Of a stretch of DNA of 64,000 nucleotides, positions 3,435-23,857 are shown piece after piece. The position numbers and the translations under genes were made by a program. Source of the DNA: Bacteroidales bacterium (lineage in GTDB: Bacteria > Bacteroidota > Bacteroidia > Bacteroidales > VadinHA17); the NCBI GenBank assembly GCA_003142255.1, contig PLLO01000018.1:193129-257128 (forward strand), written 5' to 3'. Under the pieces are notes generated by a model, which searched no databases, was not told the DNA's origin, and saw only the letters and a program-made list of their open reading frames with translations. Positions within the stretch are counted from its first letter, which is position 1; each line of letters begins with the position of its first letter.

Positions 3435-5231
3435 TTGGGTCAGTTATCTCAGAAGAGTCTGCATAAATATGGAAGCTCGTTTCTCCAGCAAATCGATTAC
3501 ACCTATAATATCCGCGGATGGCTGACATCAATAAATGACCCGGACAACCTTGGATCCGATCTCTTTTCGATGAAGTTATTATATGAAAACCCGGGTTCTT
3601 TGACCAATCTTACAAAAGAGAGGCAATTTAACGGAAATATATCAGGCATGATATGGAATCGCAATACCAGCCCTTCTGTAATAGAAAAAAGCGCATACAG
3701 CTTTATATATGATGCCCTGAATAGGATTAGTAACGATTATTACGGAGATGGTTCGACGTTAGCCAATTCCGAAAAATTCCGGGAGTATGATTATTCTTAT
3801 GATCTGAACGGAAATATAATTACTCTTAAACGTAATAATAATTCAGGGACTCAGATAGATAATCTTTCATATACATACCTTTCAGGCGGCTCAAGCAACC
3901 AGCTTGCATTAGTAGGGGATAACACGGCTAATACCTCAGGCTTTAATGACGGTAATACTTCAGGAAATGATTATTTGTACGACAATAATGGGAACCTCAC
4001 CAGAGATCTTAATAAAGGATTCAGTACGATAACATATAATTTCTTAAATTTACCAAATGTACTAACCAAAGGTGCCACGAGTCTGACCTATTACTATGAT
4101 GCAATGGGAACAAAGCTGAAGCAAGCAAAGGTTGAAGGAGAAAATACGACAAGCAGATATTATCTTGACGGATTTGAATATGATAATTCCAAAGCACTCA
4201 GCCTGATCCATATGGAAGAAGGAGTTATTAATAAGGATGTAAGCACATTCCAGTACGAGTATTATATAAAGGATCATCTGGGAAGTACGAGGATATCATT
4301 CACACCTGGCACAAACAATACTGTTACATTAGTACAGTCCACAGATTATTATCCGTTTGGACTCGAATTCAGCCCACAGTATGACAATTCTTCAGGTAAT
4401 AAGTACCTGTATAACGGAAAAGAATTACAGGATGGATTAAGTCTTGATTGGTATGATTACGGAGCCAGGTTCTACGATCCGGGAATAGGCAGGTTCATTA
4501 CCCAGGATCCTAGGGCTGAAGATTATGATTCATGGACCCCATATAATTATTGTGCTGATAATCCAATATTTTTTATGGATCTTGATGGAATGGATTGGTA
4601 TACCAATTGGTTTACAGGAAAGCAGGTTTGGTTTGATGGAAGTGACAAACATTTCTTCTATTCCCATAATGAGGGAGGGTATTATTCATCACCTACTGCT
4701 ACAGTGGTAGATTATTCCTACTCTACACTTCATCAGCAAGCAGTAGACTATGTAAGCGCATTGAGATTTGAACAAACTCTAAATGCTTCTGGGATTCAAA
4801 CAAATAGAACTGATAGTCGTTTTGAAGCATTTGCTTCATGGATATCATTAGGTGCACTACCGGAAATTAAAGGATTATCAGGTTTTCTAAAATTATTTAA
4901 AGGATCTCAAAAAAATGTAGTAAAAAGCGTTGAAGAGCTAATATCTGTAGCGAATACTACAGACAAAGGTGGCTTAACTACCGTTGGCAGAGCACTTCAA
5001 AAACATGGGAGTAGAGCTGGAAGTGTATTTCCAAAAGTTGCTGGTTCTCCAGCTGTTATCAATGCACAAGGAGAAGCAGTTTTACGGGATATAATCACTA
5101 ATCCTAGTGTTTCTACCACTATTAGACATCACGCAAGGCTTGGAGATGTACTGGAATATCGAATCCCTAGCGGACAAGGTGCAAGATTTAGTTCAGATGG
5201 CAAGAAGTTTTTTGGATTTATAGAGCAATGA
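3435..5231 (+). CDS. RHS/YD-repeat protein C-terminal fragment with polymorphic toxin tip (cassette 1); frame open from 3261, no N-terminus
   Basis: YD repeats (YTYNIRGW, YSFIYDALNR, YSYDLNGN, YLYDNNGN). Core end is [38 protein letters not shown], followed by a ~215-aa variable tail. Confidence 0.85.
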   Translation: MGQLSQKSLHKYGSSFLQQIDYTYNIRGWLTSINDPDNLGSDLFSMKLLYENPGSLTNLTKERQFNGNISGMIWNRNTSPSVIEKSAYSFIYDALNRISNDYYGDGSTLANSEKFREYDYSYDLNGNIITLKRNNNSGTQIDNLSYTYLSGGSSNQLALVGDNTANTSGFNDGNTSGNDYLYDNNGNLTRDLNKGFSTITYNFLNLPNVLTKGATSLTYYYDAMGTKLKQAKVEGENTTSRYYLDGFEYDNSKALSLIHMEEGVINKDVSTFQYEYYIKDHLGSTRISFTPGTNNTVTLVQSTDYYPFGLEFSPQYDNSSGNKYLYNGKELQDGLSLDWYDYGARFYDPGIGRFITQDPRAEDYDSWTPYNYCADNPIFFMDLDGMDWYTNWFTGKQVWFDGSDKHFFYSHNEGGYYSSPTATVVDYSYSTLHQQAVDYVSALRFEQTLNASGIQTNRTDSRFEAFASWISLGALPEIKGLSGFLKLFKGSQKNVVKSVEELISVANTTDKGGLTTVGRALQKHGSRAGSVFPKVAGSPAVINAQGEAVLRDIITNPSVSTTIRHHARLGDVLEYRIPSGQGARFSSDGKKFFGFIEQ

Positions 5232-5531: not shown

Positions 5532-5749
5532 ATAGAGTATAAACCTGCCTGGCGTTAAAATCCCTGATCAGTGCCGTTCATACTTCCAGTATCCAATACT
5601 TCACATAGAGCCAGAAAACGCCAAACAGACAAGTTATATGCTGGAAGATGCAATTTCCAGGTGAATCTCATCCGATTTGTTATAAAAAACTGCTATTTTC
5701 ATGCTTAAATTGAGCATTTAAAAGCGATCCTGATACTTTAACACATCAA

Positions 5750-5763
5750 AAAGTTCTTTGAAA
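5750..5763 (+). repeat. Junction 14-mer AAAGTTCTTTGAAA (cassette 2)
   Basis: Exact copy, 54 nt upstream of GTATGATTACGG. Confidence 0.8.
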
Positions 5764-5865
5764 ACACTTCTTTTAAATTAATAAGCAACTGTAAATCTGG
5801 TCTTAGAGATCAATTAGTATGATTACGGTGCAAGATTCTACGATCCGCAAATAGGCAGATGGCAT

Positions 5866-6651
5866 GTGATGGATCAAATGGCAGAAGTTTATTCAAATAT
5901 AACTCCATATGCTTACTGTGCAAACAATCCAATTAGACTTATTGATATTGATGGGAGGTATTTTGATGATGAAAATGAGAAGACTGCACAGCATAACGAA
6001 AGAAGATTAATTAACAAACAACATAGGCTAGCGAATAGAGCCATTAAGATGGCAGCGAAAGGAAAAGATACTGGGGATATTGAAGCTCGTCAGGATGAGT
6101 TAGATAAGTCTTTAAATAATATTAGCAATATGCGAGCTAATGAAAACACAGAATTTAGGTATGCTAGTGTTAATTCTAAAGAAGCACGGCTTTATAATGT
6201 GGAAGGACCTACAACACAATATACTGCTAAGAATGAAAATGGAGATGCTGTTGTTACAATGTTTACCGAAAATAATATGGGTAGCGTGTTGCATGAAGGG
6301 AGACACGGAGGAGATTATGCAACAGGCACTTTAAGAATTAACACCTCTGGTGGATACGGTGTTTCTCACGAAGTTAGTGCTTACAGAGCTCAATATTCTT
6401 GGAATGGTTCTTTGCAGTATAAGCCTGCTGATTATCTTTCCAATAATCCAATATTAGGGTCTGCTTTTGATAAATTGGGTGAAGGAATAATTCCAACAAT
6501 TTCAGTTGTAGACATTAATTCAATTACTCCAGGTCTTGTAAATAATATAGGGACGTCTGTAATGTATAATAAAGGGAATACATCTATTAAAGCATGGATG
6601 CCACTATACCCGCCAAATGGCATAAAAAAAGAAATATGGGACAATCATTAA
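5866..6651 (+). CDS. Orphan RHS C-terminal toxin module, cassette 2, HExxH motif
   Basis: Frame opens at 5818 directly after a TAG: [32 protein letters not shown]. The tail contains [10 protein letters not shown]. Confidence 0.75.
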
Positions 6652-6660
6652 TTAAATACT

Positions 6661-7176
6661 ATGGAAAAAATATTTTTTTTTAGCGCTTTTATATTTTTAG
6701 GATCAGCATGCTCCCACCACTTGTTTTTAAGCAATAGAGTATTTGTTAATAGCGATTCAATAAAAGTAAACTCGCTGGAGTTTGTCAATGATAGCATCTG
6801 TATATATAAACAAACGTTTAGGTGCGAGATGCAAAACCCCTTTAGAGAGGTAAAAATAATTTGTAAGTATAAGGCCTTAAAAAATAAGATAATCCTAGAA
6901 AATTTAACTAGTAATCCTGATAGTATAGGAGTTACATGTTTTATAATACCAGAAGGAGAGCTGTTAAGATGCTCGTTAATTAATGAAAAATTATTTGAAA
7001 GAAAAGCGATATTAATTGATGCACACAAAACGTTTACAATGCATGATTTGTATGGATATATTAATAATGTTATTACAGATACTTTATTGTACAAAAGAAA
7101 TGCCATCCTATATAATAAGCTGAATAGATGTCACCCATATACGATGTATGTGCATTCAACCTTTAGAGAAGAGTGA
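6661..7176 (+). CDS. Putative immunity lipoprotein, cassette 2
   Basis: Starts 10 nt after the toxin stop. Lipoprotein-type signal FFFSAFIFLGSAC. Confidence 0.6.
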   Translation: MEKIFFFSAFIFLGSACSHHLFLSNRVFVNSDSIKVNSLEFVNDSICIYKQTFRCEMQNPFREVKIICKYKALKNKIILENLTSNPDSIGVTCFIIPEGELLRCSLINEKLFERKAILIDAHKTFTMHDLYGYINNVITDTLLYKRNAILYNKLNRCHPYTMYVHSTFREE

Positions 7177-7233
7177 TCATTATAACTGCTAAGGATAGTC
7201 ATCAACCATAATATCTTACAAATCATAAAGCAT

Positions 7234-7264
7234 AAAACCCAGTTCACCGCCGGGTTTCGTTTTG
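7234..7264. terminator. Hairpin terminator ending cassette 2
   Basis: AAAACCC..GGGTTTcGTTTT. Confidence 0.55.
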
Positions 7265-7486
7265 AAGAGTATATGCCTGCCTGACATTAAAATCTCTAAT
7301 CATTACCTTTAGTACTTCCAAGATACACTGTTTAAAATCCACATAGAGCCAGTAAATGTCAAATGACTAATTTACATACTTGAAGATGCAATTTTCAGGT
7401 GAATCTCCTCCAATTAATTATAAAAACCCTTATTTTCATGTTTAAATTGAGCATTTAAAAGTGTTTTTACACTTTAGATACCTCAA

Positions 7487-7500
7487 AAAGTTCTTTGAAA
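7487..7500 (+). repeat. Junction 14-mer AAAGTTCTTTGAAA (cassette 3)
   Basis: Exact copy, 54 nt upstream of GTATGATTACGG. Confidence 0.8.
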
Positions 7501-7683
7501 ACCACTCTTTTTATTGTTAAGGAAGTTGGTATTTAGCTACTTGAGATCGATTGGTATGATTACGGCGCAAGGTTTTATGATCCACAAATCGGAAGGTGGC
7601 TGGTACAGGATCCACTTGCAGAATACCGACTTAACCTTTCACCATATAACTATTGTAAGAATAACCCTATTCTTTATATTGAC

Positions 7684-8262
7684 ATGTTTGGTTTGCAGGA
7701 TACTCTGGTACATCCTCCACTTCCTGAAGTAAAAGTTGTAGCATATAGAAATCCCCCAGAACAATCATTTTATAGTTGGATATGGAGTTTGAGTAATAGA
7801 ATTGATTGGTTTTTATTAGGTAATACTTATGAACTTAAAGTAAGAAATGCCACAAATTACGAAAATTGGATGATAAGAAATGTAGATCAGCAGATTCTTG
7901 AAGAAATCGCAAAAGTAAACAGTGCTCATCTAACCGATCCCGCATTGCATAATTATGTTAGATCAAATGAAAGCTACCAAGGAAAAACGGAGGATAAAGA
8001 GATAATTGAGGAGAAAGCTGGCAATAACATAAAATTAATTGAAGATAAAACCGCTATATGGGTTAAGGATGAAGAAATTAAAGAATATGTTATCGTTAAA
8101 CCTGAATATTGTGTAAATGGCGTTTTTGGTCATTCAGATAGTCTTAATCACCTCGTTTGGAGCAAAGTAGGTGATACTATTCGCGAATATATTGTACAAC
8201 CTGGGCACTATGAGTTAGTTTCGTCGAAAGGGGACACTACAAGAGCGAATAAGAAGAAATAG
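7684..8262 (+). CDS. Orphan RHS C-terminal toxin module, cassette 3, unassigned toxin domain
   Basis: Frame is open from 7537 ([38 protein letters not shown]). The first ATG is at 7684. ORF 7514-7732 is the wrong frame. Confidence 0.7.
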
Positions 8263-8293
8263 TTATTATATAAAATTTCAATGCAATGATGCT

Positions 8294-9091
8294 ATGAAAA
8301 AAACATTTTTATTTTTTTTAATACTTCTTTCGATTTTAGGATGTAAGCGACAAAAAATAGTTAATTATTATTATCAAACAGGTAAAATAATGGTATCCAA
8401 AATTTATCCGGATAAAAGGGATACGACAACATATAAGGAACTTAAATTTTTTGACGATGGGATGCTTCTAAGTAGGTATAATTACAGGAACAACCGGCCT
8501 GAAGGCGGATTTGGAGCCTTTACACCAAAAGGTATCATTATTGAACGTGGTACTTATGAAGATGGTAACCTTGCTGGTGTACTTCAAGAGTATGACACTA
8601 CTGGAGTATTAGCCCGTGAGACATACTATATAAATGGTAAAAAAGTAATTTATTCTTATGGTTGGTATTCGGAAAACAAAGAGATTTTCGGTCAAAATAT
8701 TTTTTTATTTAAAAATGATACTGCTATCTATCGAGTTGGCCAAATCTTAAGGGCGGAAAATGGAACTTATATAAAAAAGATGAGTGCTTACTCATTAATA
8801 ATCTCAAAAGATACTATTTTAGAATCCTCTAATTGTTTTGATCTACGAACTTTTTTCCCTGTTTCTTGTAGTAAATATGAGATATCTTTTGGTACTCCTA
8901 ATATTAATCTTGAGTTTAACAAAGTTGATACTAGTTTTACTACTGCAGATTCATTGATAAAGATTTGTAATTATAAATTTCATAAAGGAATGAATCATGT
9001 TTTCTGCAAAGTGGTTGCTTACTCTGTTGATATAGCTGATACAGCTACATTTTTTGCATATAAGGATGTTTTTGTCAAACCAAAGAAATAA
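8294..9091 (+). CDS. Putative immunity lipoprotein, cassette 3, YwqK/MORN-variant-like repeats
   Basis: Signal LILLSILGC. Repeated Y-x-x-G motifs (YYQTGKIM, YEDGNLAG, YYINGKKV) resemble the YwqK antitoxin family. Confidence 0.6.
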   Translation: MKKTFLFFLILLSILGCKRQKIVNYYYQTGKIMVSKIYPDKRDTTTYKELKFFDDGMLLSRYNYRNNRPEGGFGAFTPKGIIIERGTYEDGNLAGVLQEYDTTGVLARETYYINGKKVIYSYGWYSENKEIFGQNIFLFKNDTAIYRVGQILRAENGTYIKKMSAYSLIISKDTILESSNCFDLRTFFPVSCSKYEISFGTPNINLEFNKVDTSFTTADSLIKICNYKFHKGMNHVFCKVVAYSVDIADTATFFAYKDVFVKPKK

Positions 9092-9125
9092 TAGGAATTG
9101 TTGCAACCATTTAACTCAAGATAAA

Positions 9126-9157
9126 CAGAACCTGGTTTACTGCCGGGTTTTTGCTTT
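9126..9157. terminator. Hairpin terminator ending cassette 3
   Basis: AACCTGG..CCGGGTTTTTGCTTTT. Confidence 0.5.
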
Positions 9158-9353
9158 TAATGTAGATTATCTACAGAGGCTGAATATCATATATCATTGT
9201 AATTGAATAGTCATAATCCCCTTTCTGGTCCACTATTTTGATCCTCGCAATGCATTTTTCTTGAATCTTAAAGGGCATACTGATCCAAAAAATCACTATT
9301 TTCACCTTCAGGAACAGCTTTTAAACTAACTTTTCCAACTGTTTCTAAGGTAA

Positions 9354-9367
9354 AAAGTTCTTTGAAA
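9354..9367 (+). repeat. Junction 14-mer AAAGTTCTTTGAAA (cassette 4)
   Basis: Exact copy, 53 nt upstream of GTATGATTACGG. Confidence 0.8.
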
Positions 9368-9438
9368 AAACCATTTGGGACGAATAAGCAACTGTAAATC
9401 TGGTCATAGAGATCAATTAGTATGATTACGGGGCACGG

Positions 9439-10200
9439 ATGTATGACCCACAAATAGGCCGATTTACCACCGTGGATCCACTGGCGGAAAAGTATGAATC
9501 TTGGTCAGTTTATCAATATGTGAGAAATAATCCTATTCTAAGAATTGATCCTAACGGTATGGATGATTATACTATAAATAAAAAGACAGGAGATGTAAAG
9601 TTATTAAAAGAAACAAAAGATAAAACTGACAGAGTCGTTAAAACTTATAGTAGAAAAAGCCGAGAAGGAGAAGTTAAAACAAATAGAAAAGGAGAAGCTA
9701 GAACTGCATTTGGTGGTATAGAGAAAGGTATTCTATCGGGTGTAACTAATTTTCGTACAAATGACAACATAATTGAGGTGGGAGGAGAAGGTCAAGCGTC
9801 CGTTGCAGGAGTAAAATCTTTTACATTACAGCTTTCAGAGTATGTTGGAAATGAAATTAAAGGTTTCTCGTATTCATCTAATGCTTCTGGAAATGTTACC
9901 GATATGGTATTAGGAAAATATATAAATAATGACCTCACGCATTCTTATGGTTCACCTCAAGAATTACGAAATAAATATGGAAATAGTTATTCTACTAATA
10001 ATATTATACAACAATTTCATACTCATCCTAATGGTATATTAGGTGCAACTGAATCTAATCCCGAACTTTCAACAGACGTTGAAAGACTTCAAACTGATAA
10101 GCCGCTTATACCCAATGCAAGTTTTATTATATTGTATAGAGTTATGGGCCAGGTAAAACCAGAAGAATACGATTATACTCATGAATATAGACCAAAATAA
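9439..10200 (+). CDS. Orphan RHS C-terminal toxin module, cassette 4, possible JAB/MPN-like (HxH) domain
   Basis: TAG then [32 protein letters not shown]. The tail has [12 protein letters not shown]. The domain call is weak. Confidence 0.7.
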
Positions 10201-10210
10201 AGGCAAGGAA

Positions 10211-10672
10211 ATGAAGAAATTATTAATTATTTTTATTGTACTCAGTGTTTCAACATGTGGTCTTTATTCTCAGAATAAAACAATTAAAGGAAGGGTAATT
10301 TCTGATCAATTTGATACTTCGTTAGAAGTGTTAATTATGATTAACGACACAGTTGAAGTTGGAAGAACAGATTTAAATGGTTTTTTCCAAATAGATATCC
10401 CTGTTTCTGTGAAAAAAATATTATTTAGGTCTATTGGACTGGATCCAACAATTATAGAGCTTGAAGATAAATGCGATGAAGTGGAAGTTGTAATGATGTT
10501 AGGCAGTACTGATGATTTTATAACTTTCAAGAAGGCAGATAGACTCCGAATGAAAAGATTTATGAAGCTGCCAGAATTACATAAAGAAGCATTTGAGAAA
10601 GGTATATTTAAAACAGATAAAGCTTGTTATAAACAAGAGTTTACGCCTTTTTATACTAAAAAACAAAAGTGA
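10211..10672 (+). CDS. Putative exported immunity protein, cassette 4
   Basis: MKKLLIIFIVLSVSTCGLYSQ signal. KTIKGRVISD..GRTDLNGFFQIDIP resembles a carboxypeptidase-regulatory-like fold. Confidence 0.6.
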   Translation: MKKLLIIFIVLSVSTCGLYSQNKTIKGRVISDQFDTSLEVLIMINDTVEVGRTDLNGFFQIDIPVSVKKILFRSIGLDPTIIELEDKCDEVEVVMMLGSTDDFITFKKADRLRMKRFMKLPELHKEAFEKGIFKTDKACYKQEFTPFYTKKQK

Positions 10673-10678
10673 TATTGT

Positions 10679-10715
10679 TAAAACAAAAGCCTGGCATATG
10701 TCGAGGCTTTTGTTT
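10679..10715. terminator. Hairpin terminator ending cassette 4
   Basis: Perfect 12-bp stem AAACAAAAGCCT..AGGCTTTTGTTT with flanking T/A runs. Confidence 0.7.
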
Positions 10716-10979
10716 TATAACGCAGCAATATTTTTAATTCTGATTTTTTGAATAAAAGCGTCAAGAGTAAAGAGTAAAGAGTACATGATCCTTCTCTACC
10801 GGTACCATCTTCTCGATATCATTTAATCTCTTGAGCATGCCCGGATCTTTAAGCACATTCTCCTGGCCAGTCTCATTTGGTAAGAAAACCTCGGCTATCT
10901 TTGTGAAATTGCTGAAAAACGTCTATTTTCATGCTTAAATCGAATATTTAGAAGCAATTCTGACACTTTAAACACCTCA

Positions 10980-10993
10980 AAAGTTCTTTGAAA
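10980..10993 (+). repeat. Junction 14-mer AAAGTTCTTTGAAA (cassette 5)
   Basis: Exact copy, 54 nt upstream of GTATGATTACGG. Confidence 0.8.
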
Positions 10994-11065
10994 ATGCATT
11001 TTTACGGAGTTAATAACTTGTAAACGAGAAGTGAGTGACCAGACTGGTATGATTACGGGGCTAGG

Positions 11066-11833
11066 ATGTACGACCCCGTGATTGCAAGATGGACAACACC
11101 TGACCCAATGGCTGAAAAAGCCAGAAGATGGAGCCCTTATAATTATACAATGAACAACCCCATGAGATTTATTGATCCAGATGGGATGAAAGTTACCGAA
11201 ACAGAGTTCGCTACAACTTATACTGGAGAAGATGCTGTCAATGAATTTAGAATATTACAGGAACAATATAATTCATCAGCAAGTGATCCTTGGGCGTCCA
11301 AATATTTTACTGTTCATCAAAAAGCTAATGAAAATGGTATTAAGAGAAATGGTGATCCTAAAGATTCGCATGAGAAGCAATTAATGAACCTTGAACTTGA
11401 TGCATTAAATGAAGGAACCGTTTATGCTGACGAAGATCAATTTCAAACTGGTGAGAATTCGTATAGACATGCTATGAGAAATTCGAATCAGACGGTTCAA
11501 CAAGCTATGGAGGAAGCGGATAAATTTGTTCGTAAGCAATTTGCTAAAGCTAAACAATTACTACTACAAGGGGAAACAGTAGAAGCATATAAAGAGTTTT
11601 CAATTGGATTGCATGCATTGCAGGATGCTACATCCCCCACCCATGCTGGATTTCAAATTTGGACAGGACATGAAATTATAGAGCAAAAGATAATTCATGT
11701 TAGCCAAGAATTATTCTATCCTGGTGCAAATAGTAATCTTCAAAAAGTTACGAATCAATATTTAGATTGGTTTCAAAAAAGCACAGAGCCCCTACCTAGT
11801 ACAAACTTATTTAGTGGAATTAATCATGATTAA
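11066..11833 (+). CDS. Orphan RHS C-terminal toxin module, cassette 5, HxxxDxxxPxH motif (zinc phospholipase C / P1 nuclease-like)
   Basis: Frame opens at 11045 after a TGA stop (11039-11041) and a PD dipeptide (11042-11047): [34 protein letters not shown]. The tail [15 protein letters not shown] matches the H-x3-D-x3-P-x-H spacing of Zn-dependent PLC. Confidence 0.7.
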
Positions 11834-11834
11834 T

Positions 11835-12179
11835 ATGAAAACAATAGCATTCCTGTTAATTGTCTACATAGTTTTTTTAATCTCATCATACTATTTTAGA
11901 AATAAAATGATTTATGTAAAATCTAAATGGCTTTATTTATTCATTCTAGCTTATTTAATAGCCATAAACTTTTACTATGAATTATTTAACCAATTAGATG
12001 AATTTCTTACAAATAAGAAAATATACTTGGAATTAGGGCATGCCAATATTTTACTATTATTATTATACTTATTTTCTAATCTTACTGCAATAGCAATTAT
12101 TATTAGTATTTTTTATAAAAGGAGGAAAATATTTTCTGATTCATTTTCGGATACAAATTCAAATCCACCAAGAAGCTAA
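11835..12179 (+). CDS. Putative membrane immunity protein, cassette 5
   Basis: ORF 11814-12179. MKTIAFLLIVYIVFLISS plus at least two more hydrophobic spans. Abuts the toxin stop. Confidence 0.55.
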   Translation: MKTIAFLLIVYIVFLISSYYFRNKMIYVKSKWLYLFILAYLIAINFYYELFNQLDEFLTNKKIYLELGHANILLLLLYLFSNLTAIAIIISIFYKRRKIFSDSFSDTNSNPPRS

Positions 12180-12253
12180 GTGCCAATTATAGCTATTTCT
12201 AAAGGTAAGTTGGAAAATTTTGTTGAAATGTTATAACCATAAAACACCATAAA

Positions 12254-12284
12254 CACGGAAACCGGTTCATCGCCGATTTTCGTG
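12254..12284. terminator. Hairpin terminator ending cassette 5
   Basis: CACGGAAA..TTTTCGTG. Confidence 0.5.
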
Positions 12285-12392
12285 CAACACAGAGTGGCAA
12301 TATTTTAAGCTTTATCTTCTGAATCAGGGCGTCAATGGCAAAGAGAACATGACCCTTCTCTGTTGGTGCCATCTTCTCGATATCATTTAATG

Positions 12393-12710
12393 CTAAATAT
12401 ACCTGGCAGTTTTTTCTTCCCAGATTTTTGGATTACGGTGGGTGCTTATAACTGCCAATACTTCAACAACGTTGGTTTCTTCGTTAATATAGAAATGCAC
12501 CATATATGGGAATTTCTTAATAAGCATACACCGGATATCTTTGTAACGGGTAGCATAAATTTGCGGGTCTTTGCTAAGACTGTTAATTTGTTTTATTGTA
12601 GTCTCAAGAAATCTTTTCCCAAGCTTTGTCAGCGCTTCATTGTACCAGTCAGTAATCCCCTGGATATCTGCGAGTGCTTCCGGATCAATCTTTACTTTAA
12701 ACCTCTTCAT
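12393..12710 (-). CDS. Type II toxin, RelE/ParE family
   Basis: 105 aa. Paired with the upstream small gene by a 1-nt overlap. Typical ParE-like layout (FKVKIDPEALADIQGITDWY..VVEVLAVISTHRNP). Confidence 0.75.
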   Translation of the reverse strand: MKRFKVKIDPEALADIQGITDWYNEALTKLGKRFLETTIKQINSLSKDPQIYATRYKDIRCMLIKKFPYMVHFYINEETNVVEVLAVISTHRNPKIWEEKTARYI

Positions 12711-12943
12711 CAGACTTTCAGCGATTTCTTAGCTTCATCCCAATCCAAAAGTCTTTCCGGGTTCTTTCTTACTTTATCAAAACGGTCCATTACCAGTTTT
12801 TGATGAGCTTCAGGAATGTCAAAAACTTCTTTTTCTTTTTTTAAAGCATAATCAAGCATGCTTTTAATAGCATTAATCAGGTTTACATCATCCACCTGTT
12901 TAAACTGCTTTATTATTATCGCTTTTTGTGTTTGTACGTTCAT
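12710..12943 (-). CDS. Type II antitoxin (addiction-module component)
   Basis: 77 aa, immediately upstream of and overlapping the ParE-like gene. Confidence 0.65.
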   Translation of the reverse strand: MNVQTQKAIIIKQFKQVDDVNLINAIKSMLDYALKKEKEVFDIPEAHQKLVMDRFDKVRKNPERLLDWDEAKKSLKV

Positions 12944-13285
12944 GGCAGTAATATTACCTGGTTAAATAGCAAATATTCTTATCCCTGCAACTTCTCTTAT
13001 AGTTTATCAATCACCATAAAGAATCAATAGTTGCTGGTTTAGGACAAAATTAGTTAATTCTAAGATTATAATAAAATCAAATAAATCTGTAGTGCCTTTT
13101 ACTCGCTTTGTTCTTGAGGCCGCGACACTTTAAAGCATATCTCGGTTCATTGGTTCATTATTATGGCTACCTTCTTTAGTTTTTCTGCTTTGAGATCTTC
13201 TTTAATAGAATTATTGGTCAAAAATTCGCTATTTTCACTCCAGAAAACAGCTTCGGAACTGATTTTCGCTCTGTTTTTAATGTAA

Positions 13286-13299
13286 AAAGTTCTTTGAAA
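13286..13299 (+). repeat. Junction 14-mer AAAGTTCTTTGAAA (cassette 6)
   Basis: Exact copy, 54 nt upstream of GTATGATTACGG. Confidence 0.8.
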
Positions 13300-13398
13300 A
13301 TGTATTTTTACGGAGTTAATAACTTGTAAACCAGAAGTGAGTGACCAGATTGGTATGATTACGGAGCAAGATTTTATGATGCCCAGATTGGATGGTGG

Positions 13399-14136
13399 AT
13401 GACCGTGGATCCGCTGGCTGAAACTTTCAGAAAATGGAGTCCGTATACATATGCTGTTGATAATCCAATCAGGTTTATTGATCCTGATGGCATGGGAGTA
13501 AGTTTAGGTGGAGGGCAATACGGAGGTGATTTGTACACTGGTATAGATGCACAAAATTTGTTTAGAGAATTGCAAACTCAATCTATCTCTAATAATCAGG
13601 ATCAGCAAGATGATAAGAAACAGAAAGAGGATAAACCTAATCCAGATGATCATCCTCTAATGAAAAACGCTGTAGAAATGGGATTAATGGCTAAAGATGC
13701 AATAAATTTTTACAGTGATCTATTAGGAGGACCAGAGGGTAGTACTATTGATAAATTAATATTCTGGACTAAGATATATTTGTATGGTAAAATTTTTAGT
13801 CTCTTCGGTGATGCAGCTTCAACTCAAACTGAGGAAATTGCAAATGAAGAAAAACTCTTTAGACCTGGTGGTAAATTAGTTGGTGAACAAATTGGTGAAA
13901 ACCCTCTAATAAGAACTGTAACAAAAGAAGAGGCAGAAAATATAATAAATAATCTAATAAAATGTGGTGCTAAAGCTGTACCAAAACCAGGTTATGAGGG
14001 AACATGGTATGAATTACCAAGCGGAGGTGGATTCGGCGTAAGAAATTCAGTTTCGGACCTATCAAGAAGTTTAGGGAGTTCAAATGCTATAGATCTAGAT
14101 ATTTTGGGAATACCACTTAAAAACATAAAATTTTAA
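13399..14136 (+). CDS. Orphan RHS C-terminal toxin module, cassette 6, unassigned toxin domain
   Basis: Frame opens at 13345 after a TGA: [35 protein letters not shown]. The tail has no motif I can name. Confidence 0.7.
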
Positions 14137-14435
14137 TGGTAAAATTCGTCGATTTTGAGAAGGAATGCATTGAGCATATGGATATTGATTATATGCCACT
14201 CAATGACATAGTTAGAGCAGTTTCTGGCTTTTATCATCGTCCAACAGAAGATGAGTTTTTAACTGCTTTATCTTACCTCATACGTTTAATTGAAAAACAC
14301 CACCTTAAGGTAATAGAAGGTCCAGAAATGAAGGTTACCGAAAAAAAAATAGAAAATCTTTTAGACTGGATAAAACAAAAATGGTATTTAGGTCAGTATG
14401 ATGATATTAATTATGGCATATGGTTTGAAAAATGA
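14136..14435 (+). CDS. Putative immunity protein, cassette 6 (cytoplasmic, 99 aa)
   Basis: TAATG overlap with the toxin stop. No signal peptide. Confidence 0.6.
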   Translation: MVKFVDFEKECIEHMDIDYMPLNDIVRAVSGFYHRPTEDEFLTALSYLIRLIEKHHLKVIEGPEMKVTEKKIENLLDWIKQKWYLGQYDDINYGIWFEK

Positions 14436-14484
14436 ATTATTAATATAAGTGCATAAGGACTGGCCTATATTTATTTTTAATTAA

Positions 14485-14521
14485 AATAACAAAGCCCGGA
14501 TTGTTCCGGGTTTTGTTATTT
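14485..14521. terminator. Hairpin terminator ending cassette 6
   Basis: AATAACAAAGCCCGGA ttgt TCCGGGTTTTGTTATT. Confidence 0.7.
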
Positions 14522-14557
14522 ATAGAACAGCAATATTTTTGATCTTTGAATACTTTA

Positions 14558-14908
14558 TTATTTCACTTTTCTTAGACTTTTAATCCTTGATGGCCTGCGG
14601 TGACCATGAATAATACCAAGAATTACGATTTCGGAAGGTTTTATTTTATAGATAATGAGCCAACTAAGGCAAACAGCTTTACGGTATATTTTCTTAACAG
14701 TAGGAATTTCTTCACACTCACGGAATGCAAGTGGGCTATTTTCGATACGGTCAAAGGTCTTTAAAATCTCATCACCCACATGGATGGCGTTTAAAGGCTC
14801 GTGCATGATGTAGGCAATATAGCCGGTAATGTTATCTAGGTTCTGTAAAGCGTGTTCGGTTACCCTTAACGTATAAGTTTCTCGAGCTTCTTCTTTTGTT
14901 CTGCCCAT
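14558..14908 (-). CDS. Type II toxin, RelE/ParE family
   Basis: 116 aa, YTLRVTEHALQNLDNITGYI..IVILGIIHGHRRP. Overlaps the upstream small gene. Confidence 0.7.
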   Translation of the reverse strand: MGRTKEEARETYTLRVTEHALQNLDNITGYIAYIMHEPLNAIHVGDEILKTFDRIENSPLAFRECEEIPTVKKIYRKAVCLSWLIIYKIKPSEIVILGIIHGHRRPSRIKSLRKVK

Positions 14909-15117
14909 CTTTGTTTGGCATCAGTTATACTCACAGTCGGGGAGTTTTCGGCATACTTTACCCACTTTCTGAAATCTTCTTCGCTTATAGGGTCGCCAGG
15001 CAAAGAATATGAGGTTAAATCCGATTCTTTCAAAATCCTTATTAAATGCTTATCCTCTAGATTCTGCAAAGCTTTTAAAGAATTGTTTGCTGTAAGTTCT
15101 ATTGTTAGTTTTTGCAT
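14866..15117 (-). CDS. Type II antitoxin partner
   Basis: 83 aa, upstream of and overlapping the ParE-like gene. Confidence 0.6.
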   Translation of the reverse strand: MQKLTIELTANNSLKALQNLEDKHLIRILKESDLTSYSLPGDPISEEDFRKWVKYAENSPTVSITDAKQRWAEQKKKLEKLIR

Positions 15118-15306
15118 TGAGATTAAATTTTAACCCTGGCCAACCTGCCTGTTTTTACAAAGATATACTATCAATATTTATAAACAAAGTACTCAGAGCT
15201 GATTCATTTTAAACTACTGTTAATCAAAAGGTCCGATATCGAAGAACTATCCTTTAAGCCTAATTTGTGTTTTATGTAATTATGAGCCTATTTTTTTATT
15301 AACTAA

Positions 15307-16281
15307 ATGAATGATAAAATGGAAAGCCTACTAATTACGCATGAATTTAGTGACGCCAATTTGGATCAGAAATATTCTAACAGGCATCTTGAATTGCGAT
15401 CAGAAGAATTTATCAGCCATATTCATGGTTATGAACAATGGTTGAGGGTTTTGGGATATGCTGCAAGTACAGTTTATAACTTTCCGGCATATCTCAGGGC
15501 ATTTTTATTCTTTCTGGAGAATAAAAATGTTCTGAAGTTAAGCAAGGTTAAATATAATTATGTTAAACAGTTCTTTGCCTATTTGTCTCAAAAAGTAAGT
15601 GAACAGACAGGAAAGCCACTTTCCCGAAATTATCAACTGAATCACCTGAATGCTTTAAAAAGATTCAGCAGGTATTTGTTGGAGTGTCATGGCATATTTC
15701 TGGACTGCACAGCTACAGTTATTAGAAAAATGGTATCTGAAAGAACATGGTTGACCAAAACACAGATAGAGTCTCTTTATTATTCATGTAACTCTGGTAG
15801 CTCGGGAGTTATGAATAGGGCAATACTATCCGTATATTATGGTCTGGGTCTTCGCAGATCAGAAGGTATTGCTTTGGATATAGATGATATTCAGGTTTCA
15901 AATGGGGTAGTTTATATCAGAAAAGGCAAGAATAGCAAAGAACGATATGTTCCAATGAATGACTCTGTCCAAAGGGACATTGGAAAGTACATCTCTCAGG
16001 TGAGGAAGATACTTTTAAATGGCACAAATCATAAAGAGGACAAGGCATTATTCATATCAGAAAGAGGTCAAAGAATTACAGGTAATGCAGTATATGAAAG
16101 ATTGCAGCACCTTGCCCGTTCTGCGGATATTAGTCTTCCTCTTTCCCTACATTCTCTAAGGCATAGTATTGCAACTCACTTACTCAATGCAGGAATGCGA
16201 CTTGAAAACATAAGTATTTTCCTTGGTCACAGTAGTTTGGAAAGTACTCAAATATACACTCATCTTATCCACCAAAAATGA
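15307..16281 (+). CDS. Tyrosine recombinase, XerC/XerD-like (first of a coupled pair)
   Basis: Catalytic boxes GLRRSE, HSLRHSIATHLL and LGHSSLESTQIYTH. Confidence 0.85.
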   Translation: MNDKMESLLITHEFSDANLDQKYSNRHLELRSEEFISHIHGYEQWLRVLGYAASTVYNFPAYLRAFLFFLENKNVLKLSKVKYNYVKQFFAYLSQKVSEQTGKPLSRNYQLNHLNALKRFSRYLLECHGIFLDCTATVIRKMVSERTWLTKTQIESLYYSCNSGSSGVMNRAILSVYYGLGLRRSEGIALDIDDIQVSNGVVYIRKGKNSKERYVPMNDSVQRDIGKYISQVRKILLNGTNHKEDKALFISERGQRITGNAVYERLQHLARSADISLPLSLHSLRHSIATHLLNAGMRLENISIFLGHSSLESTQIYTHLIHQK

Positions 16282-17216
16282 TAATGGCTATGAAAACCTT
16301 TCACAATTACCTTAAAAATAAGGGATTCGCAGTATCGACCATCACTCAACATGAACGGAATATTTCATTGTTCTTTCCCTGGTTATCTGCTAATTCAATT
16401 GATATTAAGCGATGTAACTATTCTGAACTAGTTCGTTTTATTGATGAATCATTAAGTTCAAATCTCATCTTACAGAAGAAACGAAGTCATATCAACAGAG
16501 TCTTGACTTCGATCACTTATTATTTCGATTACTTATCGGAAAGGAATCCCTCAGTTCTTAATCCTGCAAAAAATATCAGAATCAGGAATAATAATAAGAG
16601 ACTCGTACATGATTTATTGGATTATAACGAGCTTATGACACTCTATAAACGGTATATTCCTGAAACTCCAAGGTATGTCAGGAATCAGGTAATATTCGGC
16701 TTTCTGATCTGTCAGGGCATGACAGTCCGTGAATTACATAATTTAAAGTTAAACGATTTAAATCTTCGTGAAGGATCCATTCTCATTCGAGGAGATAATC
16801 CAAGAGCATTAAGAAAAGGAACAACCTCAAGGAAGTTACCGCTTGAAGCAGTCCAGGTAATTGATCTACTGGAATACCTTAAGAATATCCGTTCAAAGAT
16901 TCTTATCGGTAAATATCTGAAAACATCCGGTAGAAAGCCTAAAAGAGGGAATAGGAAGAGAAGAACGGATCAGGTATTATTAAGCATGAATGGATCCCCT
17001 TATCTTAAAAATAGTCTTCATCACCTGTTTATAGATTTGAAAAGATCAAGTTTACAAATAAGAAGTGCACGACAGCTTCGGCAAAGTCTCATTGCTCATT
17101 GGCTAACACAATTTAACCTGAGGAAGGTTCAATATATGGCCGGGCACAGATATGTCAGTAGTACAGAATGGTATAAATATAATACTCCCGTAAACCTGGG
17201 CCAGGGGTTTAGTTAA
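16278..17216 (+). CDS. Tyrosine recombinase-like protein (second of pair); 3' end lies inside the IS3 terminal repeat
   Basis: ATGA overlap with the first recombinase. Boxes TVRELHNL, ARQLRQSLIAHWL (His replaced by Arg/Gln) and MAGHRYVSSTEWY. The last 12 codons fall within the IS left end. Confidence 0.75.
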   Translation: MIMAMKTFHNYLKNKGFAVSTITQHERNISLFFPWLSANSIDIKRCNYSELVRFIDESLSSNLILQKKRSHINRVLTSITYYFDYLSERNPSVLNPAKNIRIRNNNKRLVHDLLDYNELMTLYKRYIPETPRYVRNQVIFGFLICQGMTVRELHNLKLNDLNLREGSILIRGDNPRALRKGTTSRKLPLEAVQVIDLLEYLKNIRSKILIGKYLKTSGRKPKRGNRKRRTDQVLLSMNGSPYLKNSLHHLFIDLKRSSLQIRSARQLRQSLIAHWLTQFNLRKVQYMAGHRYVSSTEWYKYNTPVNLGQGFS

Positions 17217-17242
17217 AAGAAAGAATTAATTTTACTAAACCT

Positions 17243-17557
17243 ATGACAAAACAATCACGACGCAAATTCAGTGCGGACTTCAAGGCCAAAGTTGCCTTAG
17301 AAGCCATTAAAAATCAGAAGACTCTGGCAGAGCTGAGTCAACAGTTTGAGATAAACTCAGTGACGATATCAAAATGGAAGGCCGAGTTTTTAGAGAACAT
17401 GGCAATAATTTTTGAGAATGGACATGAAAAGAAAGTGAATCAGGACTCTCCAGATCTTGACCAACTTTATGCCCAGATAGGGCAACTCAAGGTAGAGAAT
17501 GACTTTTTAAAAAAAAGTGCCAGGAAACTGGGGATATCCGACAACGTATGGAAATGA
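17243..17557 (+). CDS. IS3-family transposase OrfA (HTH)
   Basis: RRKFSADFKAKVALEAIK..LAELSQQFEI plus a leucine-zipper-like end. Confidence 0.85.
   Translation: MTKQSRRKFSADFKAKVALEAIKNQKTLAELSQQFEINSVTISKWKAEFLENMAIIFENGHEKKVNQDSPDLDQLYAQIGQLKVENDFLKKSARKLGISDNVWK
17509..17517 (+). promoter_or_regulatory. Programmed -1 frameshift slippery site A AAA AAA G
   Basis: A8G run in the orfA/orfB overlap. orfB is in the -1 frame and is open from here. Confidence 0.7.
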
Positions 17558-18375
17558 TCAAATCAGATCATAAAGTATTATCTGTGAGGAAGCAATGTGA
17601 TATTCTTTCTGTACCCAGGAGCTCACTTAATTATCAGCCTATCCCGGAAAAGCCTGAGAATGTAAAGATGATGCATCTGATGGATCGGCATCTTTTGACA
17701 CACCAGACCGAAGGAGTGCTCTCCATGGTAGATATGTTAAAGGATCTGGGGCATCCTGTTGGGCCTAAACGCATCAGGCGTTTGTTCAGGCTTATGGGTC
17801 ATCAAACCATTTATCGTAGGAAGAACCTTACTAAAAACGCGTTAAAAGAGTTTATAAAACCTTATTTGCTGCGTGGTTTAAAGATCACTCATGCCAACCA
17901 GGTATGGTGCACTGATATTACTTACATACCAATGGCCAAAGGGTTTATGTATATGACAGCATTTATTGATGTTTACAGCCGCAAGATCGTTGGCTGGGGA
18001 ATCAGTAACAGTATGAGTAAACAATGGTGTCTGGACGTTTTAAATGATGCAATAGCCAGACATGGCAAACCGGAAATCATAAACTCTGACCAGGGATCAC
18101 AATATACAAGCTTTGCCTGGACAAATTATCTGGAAAAAGAAAACATAATGATATCTATGGATGGCAAGGGCCGGGCTACGGATAATGTGTGGATCGAACG
18201 GTTCTGGAAAAGCCTGAAGTATAATTATATTTACCTTAATCCTTGTGATAATGGTTTAGAACTCTTTGAAGGAGTTCAAAACTACATTGAATATTACAAT
18301 CAAAAAAAACATCAAACCATTAAAAAAACTCCCAATGAATCTTATCATGAATCAATTACCAAAAAAGCAGCCTAA
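17548..18375 (+). CDS. IS3-family transposase OrfB (DDE/rve integrase core)
   Basis: WCTDITYIP, NSDQGSQYTS and ERFWKSLK motifs. Confidence 0.85.
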   Translation: MEMIKSDHKVLSVRKQCDILSVPRSSLNYQPIPEKPENVKMMHLMDRHLLTHQTEGVLSMVDMLKDLGHPVGPKRIRRLFRLMGHQTIYRRKNLTKNALKEFIKPYLLRGLKITHANQVWCTDITYIPMAKGFMYMTAFIDVYSRKIVGWGISNSMSKQWCLDVLNDAIARHGKPEIINSDQGSQYTSFAWTNYLEKENIMISMDGKGRATDNVWIERFWKSLKYNYIYLNPCDNGLELFEGVQNYIEYYNQKKHQTIKKTPNESYHESITKKAA

Positions 18376-18593
18376 ATCAAAAAATGTTTAACTTAACAAA
18401 CGATACCTTTGGTACAGGAAATGGGGAGTATTATAAAAGGAAGTAATCTTGATGAACTTAAAAGAGAAATAAATCTTTTTCACCCATTAAAATAGTCATA
18501 TTGGGAAATATGATCTTTAGAATCTGGAAGTCAAAAAAATCTTCTTATCAACATAAATAATCTTAACTTATATTACCTTTAAAAAAAGAAAAT

Positions 18594-18605
18594 AGTTCTT
18601 TGAAA
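18594..18605 (+). repeat. Junction block AGTTCTTTGAAA (cassette 7, compressed junction)
   Basis: GAAAATAGTTCTTTGAAATAGATTGGTACGATTACGG. The block is only 8 nt from GTACGATTACGG. Confidence 0.75.
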
Positions 18606-18631
18606 TAGATTGGTACGATTACGGCGCAAGG

Positions 18632-19348
18632 ATGTACGATCCACAAATAGGTAGATTTACTACCATTGATCCGTTAGCAGATAAATTCCCTTCGATGACT
18701 ACTTTTCAATATGCAAGTAACAATCCTGTTGTTTGTATTGACCTTGATGGACTTGAAGGATATAAAATAACCACAAAAGAGATACAGACTGGAACAACTA
18801 ATGTAAAATTCACTATAGATATGAAAGTTGTAAATGCCTCTTCAGCTTCTAATAGTGATGTAAGAAGGTGGGCTGAATCTTCTAAAGCACAAATAGAAGC
18901 ATCATTTAGTGGTTTTGATAAAAACACTAACAAAAATTATTCATCTAATGTTAATTTTAATTTTGATGAAAATAGCAAACTGGGTGAAAGCTTTGTATTA
19001 AAATATGTTGACTTAGTTCATGGTACTGATGCTCAAGGGAGACCGGATACAGAGATGGATGGTTATGCTAAAGAAATAGGAAATCCTAATAATAATGAAT
19101 TTCAAGTTCTAATTCCAGGTAAAGCTGCTGCAAATTGGGCTGAAAAGGTAACTGAAGAGGGAGTAGCCGAGACAGCAACACATGAACTAGGTCATGGGCT
19201 TGGATTAAGGCATCAACCTGAAAGTGACCCTAAGAACAATATAAATATAGATGCTTATAATCTTATGTATACTGGTAGATATGGAACAAAAATCACAAAT
19301 GAACAGCTTAAATCTATAGAAGAAATCCTACCTGAAAAAAGGAAGTAA
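18632..19348 (+). CDS. Orphan RHS C-terminal toxin module, cassette 7, zinc metallopeptidase (HExxHxxGxxH)
   Basis: [38 protein letters not shown]. The tail has THELGHGLGLRH. Confidence 0.8.
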   Translation: MYDPQIGRFTTIDPLADKFPSMTTFQYASNNPVVCIDLDGLEGYKITTKEIQTGTTNVKFTIDMKVVNASSASNSDVRRWAESSKAQIEASFSGFDKNTNKNYSSNVNFNFDENSKLGESFVLKYVDLVHGTDAQGRPDTEMDGYAKEIGNPNNNEFQVLIPGKAAANWAEKVTEEGVAETATHELGHGLGLRHQPESDPKNNINIDAYNLMYTGRYGTKITNEQLKSIEEILPEKRK

Positions 19349-19367
19349 GACATTAAAAATCAATCTC

Positions 19368-19817
19368 ATGTATCTACTAAAAGGTTATATATCCACTGGA
19401 TTATTGAAAATAATTACTTTTTTCCTTTTTTTTTCACTGCTAAATTGTGATAGGCAGGAAGATAATAACTACCATGTTAAAATACAATACCTCATTAGTA
19501 TTGATAAAAATAGTATTGATAGGAGATATGGTATAGTGACATTATCTTTTCCTTCTTATTACGATAAAGACACTCTTTTACTGGAAGTGAATAAAAAAAA
19601 GTTTCTGAAAGAAGTTATTAATACAAGTGAAATAACGGGGAGTGCACTTATTGTTGCAATAGATTCGGTTAATAAAGTAAATGAAATTGGCATTAAGATC
19701 AACAATATGAAGAAAGTGTTTTTTAAGTGTAATTGGGAAAATCAACTTTTTATTATAAAGCTTAAAAAAGATAGCTTGTTTATAAATGGAGTAACTTCTT
19801 TTCCTACTCCCCGTTAA
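19368..19817 (+). CDS. Putative immunity lipoprotein, cassette 7
   Basis: Hydrophobic leader ending LLNC, 20 nt after the toxin stop. Confidence 0.55.
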   Translation: MYLLKGYISTGLLKIITFFLFFSLLNCDRQEDNNYHVKIQYLISIDKNSIDRRYGIVTLSFPSYYDKDTLLLEVNKKKFLKEVINTSEITGSALIVAIDSVNKVNEIGIKINNMKKVFFKCNWENQLFIIKLKKDSLFINGVTSFPTPR

Positions 19818-19894
19818 CCAAAGTGCTATTTCTAAGGCAAAATTAGAAAAAAGTGTTGCCCGCCGGGTGTCGGGAAGGCAATATTGCAACAATA

Positions 19895-19935
19895 AAATAA
19901 TACAGAACCCTGGGAGACCGGGGTTTTGTTATTAT
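19895..19935. terminator. Hairpin terminator ending cassette 7
   Basis: AATAATACAGAACCCTGG gaga CCGGGGTTTTGTTATT. Confidence 0.65.
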
Positions 19936-20162
19936 AATGTATAAGTATGCCTGGCGTTAAAATCCTTGATCAGTGCACTTAAAACTTTGAGGATAGACTT
20001 TTTCTCTTCTTCGGGCATGTGATCGAGCTGTTTGAATTGTTTGATCAGCTCGCATCCAAAAGGTCCATTTTAATAAGATTCTACTTAAAACTGTCAGAAA
20101 ATCATTAATTTTAACCTTAGAAACAGTATTTAGAGCTATCAATAAACCTGTTCCCAGGATAC

Positions 20163-20176
20163 AAAGTTCTTTGAAA
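20163..20176 (+). repeat. Junction 14-mer AAAGTTCTTTGAAA (cassette 8)
   Basis: Exact copy, 54 nt upstream of GTACGATTACGG. Confidence 0.8.
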
Positions 20177-20230
20177 AGCTCCTTTAAGAAGGAATAAGAA
20201 TCTATAAATCAACTGAGAAGATCAAATTAG

Positions 20231-20443
20231 TACGATTACGGTGCACGTTTTTACGATCCACAAATAGGTCGTTGGCATAGGTTGGATCCATTAGCAGAAA
20301 AATATAATTCTTTAAGTCCATACAACTATTGTTTTAACAACCCTGTTCTTTTTCTGGATCCAAATGGTGATTCTGTTAGAGTCGCTGAACAATATCGAGA
20401 GAAATACTCAAAGGATTTATTGACTTACAAACGAAAGAAATGA
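20231..20443 (+). pseudogene. Terminal RHS junction stub (cassette 8) with almost no toxin domain
   Basis: TAG then [32 protein letters not shown], followed by only ~24 further codons. No ATG. Confidence 0.6.
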
Positions 20444-21051: not shown

Positions 21052-21070
21052 TTGTTCATTTTTTTATTTT

Positions 21071-21124
21071 GTATTCTACGTATTACTCAGTAATATGGGT
21101 AATATGAGTAATATTGATAATATC
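21071..21124. repeat. Iteron cluster (GTATTACT palindrome plus tandem GTAATATGn 9-mers)
   Basis: GTATTACTcAGTAATAT followed by GTAATATGG GTAATATGA GTAATATTGA TAATATC. Confidence 0.65.
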
Positions 21125-21142
21125 TGTTATAGAAATAAAATA

Positions 21143-21898: not shown

Positions 21899-21911
21899 AG
21901 ATTCATGTTTG

Positions 21912-21973: not shown

Positions 21974-22003
21974 ATTATTCATTGAGCAAAAAAAACTAAT
22001 TTC

Positions 22004-23779: not shown

Positions 23780-23857
23780 CCATCTTGCTTTCCTTTGGAA
23801 ACCTTCCTGTTTTCAAACAACTCAATGAATGATAGGTATTGTTATAAGGTTTTAGCA

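Follow-up and report, generated by a model that had tools for sequence, protein, structure and literature searches.

We report that a short non-coding sequence, AAAGTTCTTTGAAA (hereafter the block), which recurs between the toxin cassettes of an Rhs array in a 64-kb stretch of DNA from a Bacteroidales bacterium (contig PLLO01000018.1, positions 193,129 to 257,128; this whole stretch is referred to as the window), is real and under selection. Moreover, the block and the motif that encodes YDYG at the end of the Rhs core are the unit boundaries, and both are sites of recent, precise exchange. Specifically, both the recombinase-bearing unit and every non-autonomous cassette have the block as part of their right end, and units of the order YDYG motif, toxin, immunity gene, (toxin-antitoxin (TA) pair or primase gene), (recombinase genes), left flank, block and spacer are stacked head to tail behind the end of the Rhs core. 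Finally, from comparison of these sequences we consider it rather probable that the block is a putative recognition and crossover element for a tandem pair of Xer-like recombinases, by which toxin cassettes would be stacked in an integron-like or rAID-like manner.

The block and the YDYG motif as unit boundaries

The 14-mer AAAGTTCTTTGAAA is present as exact copies, on the plus strand only, at 5750, 7487, 9354, 10980, 13286 and 20163 in the window, while its 12-nt core AGTTCTTTGAAA adds a seventh copy at 18594; all seven positions given by the first-pass annotation were reproduced. By chance approximately 0.01 matches to the 14-mer are expected and none of 100 shuffles reached six. The motif GTAYGATTACGG, which encodes YDYG where the Rhs core ends, was found at 4451, 5817, 7554, 9420, 11047, 13353, 18613 and 20230, where the copy at 4451 is inside the intact Rhs core reading frame. 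The spacers from block to motif are, in order, 53, 53, 52, 53, 53 and 53 nt in junctions J1-J5 and J7, which agrees with the distance of 53-54 nt noted at first, and only 7 nt in J6 (the 18594 copy). The Rhs gene, the junctions and the recombinase genes are, all on the plus strand:

3435..5231 (+), 5'-truncated Rhs gene, 598 aa, with its own C-terminal toxin (TIGR03696 Rhs_assc_core, 57.5 bits, cut-off 32.5)
5750..5763 (+), J1 block; spacer 5764-5816, YDYG motif 5817-5828, orphan toxin/immunity 5866-7176
7487..7500 (+), J2 block, then YDYG motif 7554-7565
9354..9367 (+), J3 block; YDYG motif 9420-9431, and an orphan toxin that begins at the Met of ARMYDP, 9439
10980..10993 (+), J4 block; YDYG motif 11047-11058; similarity to J5 starts 1 nt 5' of the block (10979/13285)
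13286..13299 (+), J5 block, then YDYG motif 13353-13364
15307..16281 (+), recA-type Xer-like tyrosine recombinase gene, first of the tandem pair
16278..18495 (+), recB-type Xer-like tyrosine recombinase gene, second of the pair, overlapping recA and split by an IS3-family insertion
18594..18624 (+), J6, a compact junction about 100 nt past the recB stop: AGTTCTTTGAAA, 7 nt, GTACGATTACGG
20163..20176 (+), J7 block; YDYG motif 20230-20241; the final junction of the array

Seven orphan units follow the Rhs gene, each of which opens at the YDYG motif and has a different C-terminal domain together with a small downstream gene, and the GC content of the array is 33-34% compared with 39.8% for the whole window. 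When up to three mismatches to the block were allowed across the 64 kb, the matches with 0-1 mismatch were the seven junctions alone. In the alignment of these junctions the block is invariant and the flanks are 52-78% identical; the spacers are of the types {J1,J3}, {J4,J5}, J2 and J7, in keeping with the divergent types recognized earlier. The intact Rhs core, aligned to the seven junctions, lacks the block at the equivalent offset (its core-end motif GTATGATTACGG, encoding YDYG, is at 4451-4462 with no block upstream), which supports the previous statement that the block is not simply Rhs coding sequence. Neither an inverted nor a second block copy was found within the window cassettes.

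Scanning metagenomes for block, spacer and YDYG motif gave 39 contigs (184 kb), several of which carry recombinase pairs 72-98% identical to those of the window. As in the window, where all 14-mer copies are at junctions, each of the 58 copies in these contigs is at a junction. The 56 distinct junctions from metagenomes and window were then compared pairwise, anchored on the block and the YDYG motif, and three classes of breakpoints were identified. Eighteen pairs (at least five independent) share 60-200 nt of identical sequence on the left and lose identity 1-4 nt past the block. In five pairs (one 1-nt-offset artefact removed) the spacer is identical throughout and divergence sets in 1-2 nt 5' of the block, and in eight pairs (at least six independent) identity runs through GTATGATTACGG and is lost right after it. 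No breakpoint inside the spacer was detected in the pairwise comparison of the 56 junctions.

As an example, the left flank of J5 in the window is unchanged in metagenome contigs L106 and L121, where it is followed by a different spacer, while the J5 spacer is unchanged in L113 and L116 next to an unrelated left flank; likewise, one junction (L107, L117 and L129) precedes three different toxins. The recombinase module (TA pair, recA, recB and J6) is 95% identical between the window and metagenome contig L120, yet the cassettes on both sides differ. In a single metagenome-assembled genome (MAG), one element occurs three times; the copies share 99.7% identity as far as ...GTTGGTACGATTACGG and diverge directly after it. 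The stretches shared at the block and at the YDYG motif are <21 nt, i.e. shorter than assembler k-mers, and the breakpoints are therefore not chimeras of de Bruijn assembly. Moreover, the class with the same left flank and different spacers is impossible from exchange at the YDYG motif alone, and hence the block is a second real exchange point.

Occurrence beside tandem recombinases in Bacteroidota

In total 77 genome loci were fetched by alignment of recombinase homologues alone (36-54% identity to the window recA). The tandem recA-recB pair is kept in all 77, and GTTCTTT is present ≤100 nt upstream of 25 of the 33 distinct orphan YDYG sites (24 at 68-72 nt and one at 26 nt) and upstream of none of the 15 intact Rhs YDYG sites. 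The carriers include Bacteroidales, Prolixibacteraceae, Draconibacterium, Mucilaginibacter, Pedobacter and a MAG labelled Ignavibacteriaceae, among others. In alignments of 28 distinct junctions from many taxa and of 43 distinct junctions, A[AC]GTTCTTT equals the coding motif in conservation, and the adjacent columns are less conserved; the GTTCTTT columns are invariant, and the suggestion in the first-pass annotation that selection acts on the block is thereby supported. The block in Sphingobacteriia is GTTCTTTATAG, where TTTA replaces TTTG and GTTCTTT is invariant. The TTCnnnGAA mini-palindrome noted in the window block is not a general feature.

Roughly half of the 77 loci have the YDYG motif twice on the same strand, with one copy approximately 4.6 kb upstream, where a long Rhs ORF ends, and an orphan copy 2-4 kb downstream. 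In most units a CHC2/Toprim primase-like or AAA-like gene precedes the recombinase genes. In many loci two or three whole recombinase-bearing units are present in tandem, 7-9 kb apart (L010, L020/L022, L021, L042, L043, L053, L079 and others), which suggests repeated insertion at the same Rhs site.

A tblastn search of recA against plasmids gave a single distant match, Aureibacter tunicatorum plasmid pAT2 (L135, NZ_AP025307.1, 160217-179026), with two identical 8169-bp tandem units after an intact RHS gene. Each unit contains an RHS C-terminus, an immunity gene, an HTH regulator, a CHC2 primase, a small ORF and two recombinases. Identity between the copies starts at GTATGGATTTAACGG (YGFNGKE), 57 nt upstream of YDYG, and ACCTTTGAGGAG is present about 10 nt upstream of this start in the second copy. 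The pAT2 units have no GTTCTTT block.

The array in L082, a relative whose recombinases are 79% identical, lies between housekeeping genes. Its left bound, TATGATCTACGG (6835-6846), is beside an Rhs remnant of about 30 codons, and its right bound consists of the block, 68 nt and TATGATTACGA (about 15094-15104); these bounds would fit the whole array moving as one unit.

The distance between the two motifs differs between types of junctions. Immediately downstream of recB, the window and two close relatives, L120 and L125, have the compact, dif-like site ATTACCTTTA-N12/13-AGTTCTTTGAAA-N7/8-TAYGATTACGG, with two dissimilar arms of approximately 11 bp around a variable centre of 7-8 bp. The dif-type arm spacing is absent from the six junctions with 52-53 nt and from L005/L007 (14-15 nt), and in more distant relatives 10-24 nt separate the arms. 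Counted from the A of the block to TAY, the distance is 66-67 nt in non-autonomous cassettes of the window clade and 70-72 nt in the broad family.

Similarity of the orphans to the intact core starts only at GATTGG/TGG-TAYGATTACGG, while core sequence is kept for 128 nt upstream in Maribacter (L078) and for 57 nt in Aureibacter. In the Maribacter locus the orphan is identical to the intact gene from CTATCCCTTCGG (YYPFG) onwards, with ACGTTCTTATGAAAA about 70 nt upstream of that point, and L034 and L062 are similar, with approximately 60-70 nt from the block to a boundary at another Rhs motif. That the block keeps a fixed distance to the crossover at different targets is more in line with the architecture of a nucleoprotein recombination complex than with a promoter. 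As a separate observation, about 8-10 of the 13 positions in the A-R-F-Y-D codons NAGGTTCTAYGAY (+14 to +26 after TAY; 4465-4477 in the window) agree with the block, AAGTTCTTTGAA, either by chance or as a possible second copy of its recognition sequence within the target.

Putative role of the block and competing explanations

The roles first considered for the block were a promoter element, a regulator site and a recombinase site. The last of these fits best, given the breakpoints at the block, the universal linkage to tandem recombinases and the dif-like compact site after recB, while the proposal that its TTTG acts as a -33 promoter element was not supported (see below). More tentatively, it is quite possible that Bacteroidota carry a widespread and hitherto undescribed two-recombinase system for the acquisition of toxin cassettes. 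Its bipartite attachment region would consist of the non-coding GTTCTTT block and the YDYG-coding motif, with the block as the cassette-side site equivalent to attC, and the pair would use it to add toxin-immunity cassettes in frame to the ends of Rhs genes and to rearrange those already displaced.

If the block is a recombinase site, one recombinase would bind the block arm and the other the YDYG arm, the arms being 7-8 bp apart and dif-core-like at the right end of the module itself and 52-53 bp apart in non-autonomous cassettes. Exchange at the YDYG motif would integrate a circular unit, in frame, after the Rhs core or after any junction and push the older toxin and immunity genes downstream, with core-YDYG-new toxin-immunity-...-left flank-block-spacer-YDYG-old toxin as the predicted product. 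Exchange at the block, on the other hand, would excise or reshuffle cassettes and leave the coding sequence untouched. Where the block is distant it could be an accessory binding site, for which the extra IntI sites of attI and the third FRT repeat are parallels, or the exchange could involve one strand and be resolved by the host.

Several observations weigh against a recombinase site. First, the breakpoints coincide with the only long identical stretches, so that rare short-homology recombination could mimic the pattern, were the block otherwise kept constant. Second, the block has no recognizable partner arm 6-8 bp away in the six junctions with 52-53 nt and hence forms no canonical Xer core there. 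Third, recombinases with only 37-54% identity to the window recA all go with an invariant motif, which could equally mean a conserved host factor, and in the broad family a promoter-like TAnnTTT(A/G) box is present about 12 nt upstream of the block. Finally, the window array shows no rearrangement in approximately 30 samples, and its recB is interrupted.

With respect to the last point, the IS3-family element (17178-18435, with ORFs at 17243-17557 and 17548-18375) sits about 18 codons before the recB stop, and the recB tail at 18436-18495 corresponds to the last 18-19 codons beyond it. The interrupted recB keeps the region of the catalytic Tyr and has its C-terminus replaced. Since the array is identical in about 30 public samples and recB carries this insertion, the window array now looks frozen, and the insertion may explain the identity. 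Looking up the exact proteins of the window cassettes returned the same array in every context and hence no boundary information. An IS-free version of the recombinase module, 95-98% identical to that of the window, is present in metagenome contig L120.

The main rival, which we regard as unlikely, is that the block is an operator, or the first transcribed bases 3' of an outward promoter, that keeps displaced toxin and immunity genes expressed, with breakpoints located there because it is the longest shared stretch. There is a selective rationale for such a transcription element as displaced immunity genes still need expression, and the box noted above, which is conserved in the broad family (exact TAnnTTTG in L011, L021, L039 and L032), would as a -7 element place the block at about +5 of the transcript; in the Sphingobacteriia Mucilaginibacter and Pedobacter, TTG is present 19 nt further upstream of the box. 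However, the window clade combines an invariant block with a degenerate box: TAnnTTTG ≤30 nt upstream was detected in none of 42 junctions and a relaxed form in four of 42. Moreover, a promoter has no need for the distance between block and crossover that is kept across different targets, and the block is also present at array ends without a cassette behind it (L082 at 15026, and L006).

The version in the first-pass annotation, in which the TTTG of the block serves as -33 element for a cassette promoter of the sigma-ABfr type and transcription starts about 30 nt downstream, is very improbable. TTTG is the Bacteroidota -33 consensus and the window-clade block contains it, but for this type of promoter (-33 TTTG followed by a -7 TAnnTTTG 19-21 nt later) neither TAnnTTTG nor TAnnTTT was present 15-25 nt downstream in any of the seven window junctions or the 42 distinct clade junctions. 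The same scan recovered canonical boxes before both minus-strand ParDE operons, which served as positive control. In addition, the Sphingobacteriia have TTTA for TTTG in GTTCTTTATAG while GTTCTTT is unchanged. Scanning for sigma-70-type promoters and terminators gave no enrichment over shuffles.

That the block is a coding relic kept by descent is likewise scarcely credible. The candidates are a degraded minus-strand gene (F-Q-R-T-F) and decayed Rhs ...ARFYD... codons (AGGTTCTAYGA resembles AAGTTCTTTGA); several junctions do look protein-like in minus-strand translation, TA genes are on the minus strand inside cassettes, and about 7.8 of 13 positions on average agree between the block consensus and the RFYD codons at +14. 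On the other hand, every junction reading frame has stops and lacks start codons, substitutions between homologous junctions, as read by eye, are not concentrated at third codon positions, and local alignments of upstream with downstream sequences are no better than shuffles (mean z 0.3). Furthermore, a neutral relic would not remain invariant across >40 diverged junctions. The two specific candidates were rejected: a minus-strand ORF through the block (FQRTF...) has broken frames and no starts in every junction, and for the junction as a decayed YDYGARFYD duplicate the mean z is again 0.3, and the TAYGATTAYGG scan gave only a weak peak, with 5 of 11 positions matching, about 17 nt 5' of the block.

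Least probable of all is an element that acts through a fold in RNA or in single-stranded DNA, such as a riboswitch, a leader or a hairpin of the attC type. By eye, many lineages other than that of the window have a short stem of 3-4 bp and varying sequence after the block, but this stem is absent from the window clade, RNAalifold predicted zero consensus pairs for 27 junctions, and an Rfam scan of 3-21 kb (E≤1) gave no match in the junctions. A LexA/SOS box was rejected since the Bacteroidetes motifs GGA-N5-TCC and CTAA-N5-TTAG (PMC8565304) do not match the block.

Relation to known systems and other features of the array

The closest described system is rAID-1 of gut Bacteroidales, in which an XerD-family recombinase is associated with low-GC, co-oriented arrays that have intergenic repeat motifs "reminiscent of integrons" and whose biogenesis is still unexplained (Ross et al. 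2019; bioRxiv 10.1101/471110; PMC12247911). The window array resembles it in having a tyrosine recombinase gene beside a co-oriented, low-GC array of genes for interbacterial conflict. Specifically, the criteria for rAID-1 are a XerD-like recombinase that shares at least 44% identity with BF9343_RS08045 and is encoded 5' of the other array genes, two or more co-oriented downstream genes with a GC content ≤41%, and a conserved repetitive intergenic motif; the window has Xer-like recombinases, co-oriented pairs downstream of recB in an array of 33-34% GC, and a repeated motif of its own at the junctions. Compared by description, the window array differs in having two tandem recombinases located inside the array, in hanging on the Rhs core end with two mapped exchange points, and in its cassettes, which are toxin C-termini with immunity genes (and TA pairs) whereas those of rAID-1 are immunity genes alone. 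XerC/D genes have also been remarked upon beside polyimmunity loci (Zhang et al. 2012). A described Rhs-targeting tandem-recombinase element was not found in the literature searched, which was of incomplete coverage, and rAID-1 together with this remark is nearest.

As in integrons, a platform site is followed by co-oriented cassettes in head-to-tail order, the array adjoins the recombinase, a short invariant boundary sequence is present in variable junctions, and the platform site (here the Rhs YDYG motif) differs from the cassette-borne site. Unlike integrons, there are two exchange points per junction, insertion would be in frame into coding sequence and no attC-like fold was found in 27 junctions; GTTCTTT does not fit the attC core GTTRRRY (inverse core RYYYAAC), and there is no inverted block copy. 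The recombinases also score far below the integron-integrase models (TIGR02249, 101 bits for recA and 24 bits for recB, cut-off 265; NF011946, 59 compared with 435).

Xer/dif systems (dif, cer/psi and the pdif modules of Acinetobacter plasmids) share with the window array paired, simple Xer-like tyrosine recombinases and TA pairs as modules, and the J6-type site is like dif in that its two arms, dissimilar and each about 11 bp long, have 7-8 bp between them. However, in most junctions the arms are 52-60 bp apart, and the modules are in direct and not alternating orientation. Neither recombinase reaches the XerC or XerD equivalog cut-off (TIGR02224/TIGR02225, 168 bits for recA and about 82 bits for recB, cut-offs 335 and 330), and they do not qualify as XerC/XerD orthologues.

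In enterobacterial Rhs/CdiA orphan arrays, e.g. in Salmonella (PMC3967940), displaced toxin-immunity pairs downstream of the main rhs gene also start at the core-end motif. There the orphans still share homology with the core, and homologous recombination exchanges them, whereas here a motif of about 12-20 nt is shared, and the window orphans lack core sequence sufficient for RecA-type exchange. The non-coding block and spacer before each orphan, and the dedicated recombinases, also set the present arrays apart.

Swapping of Rhs and contact-dependent inhibition (CDI) toxins is usually ascribed to homologous recombination. With a short mutable motif, the YDYG codons as another exchange point and a defined pair of recombinases, our data bear on how orphan arrays are assembled. 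If the two-recombinase system considered above exists, site-specific recombination would have to be counted, in place of homologous recombination, among the main routes to arrays of polymorphic toxins and orphan immunity genes, the rAID-like ones included. The assembly question is directly testable with the IS-free recombinase version in related contigs. Moreover, A[AC]GTTCTTT about 70 nt upstream of TAYGAYTAYGG beside tandem Xer-like genes is a search signature for Bacteroidota arrays and cassette boundaries in genomes and metagenomes.

Two TA pairs are encoded on the minus strand inside cassettes of the window:

12393..12943 (-), ParE/antitoxin pair, inside the cassette preceding J5
14558-15117 (-), second ParE/antitoxin pair, inside a cassette

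Each is preceded by a canonical Bacteroidota TAnnTTTG box (13052 and 15165, both on the minus strand), and the related loci L087 and L082 have RelB-like or AbiEii pairs where the window has the ParE pairs. Degraded, protein-like minus-strand remnants (…RDFNARQxYTL*) are present in J1, J2 and J7 and may be dead copies of TA-type genes.

In orphans with ...GAR(M/F)YDP... the replacement of Phe by Met gives an in-frame ATG, as at 9439, 11066 and 18632 in the window and in L009, L010, L014, L016, L018 and L021. This was observed in 11 of about 42 orphans compared with two of about 17 intact genes, which is not a significant difference.

The Rhs ORF (2479-5231 region) abuts a minus-strand gene for a GspF-like membrane protein and its N-terminal delivery part is missing; the window locus may now serve as an immunity and orphan store and not as a toxin launcher. 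Right after J7, the minus strand at 20764-26200 carries genes for ParA, DUF5712, a VapE-like primase and an HTH_17 excisionase-like protein, with an integrase beyond, a gene set typical of a Bacteroidota integrative/mobilizable element that may have truncated cassette 7.

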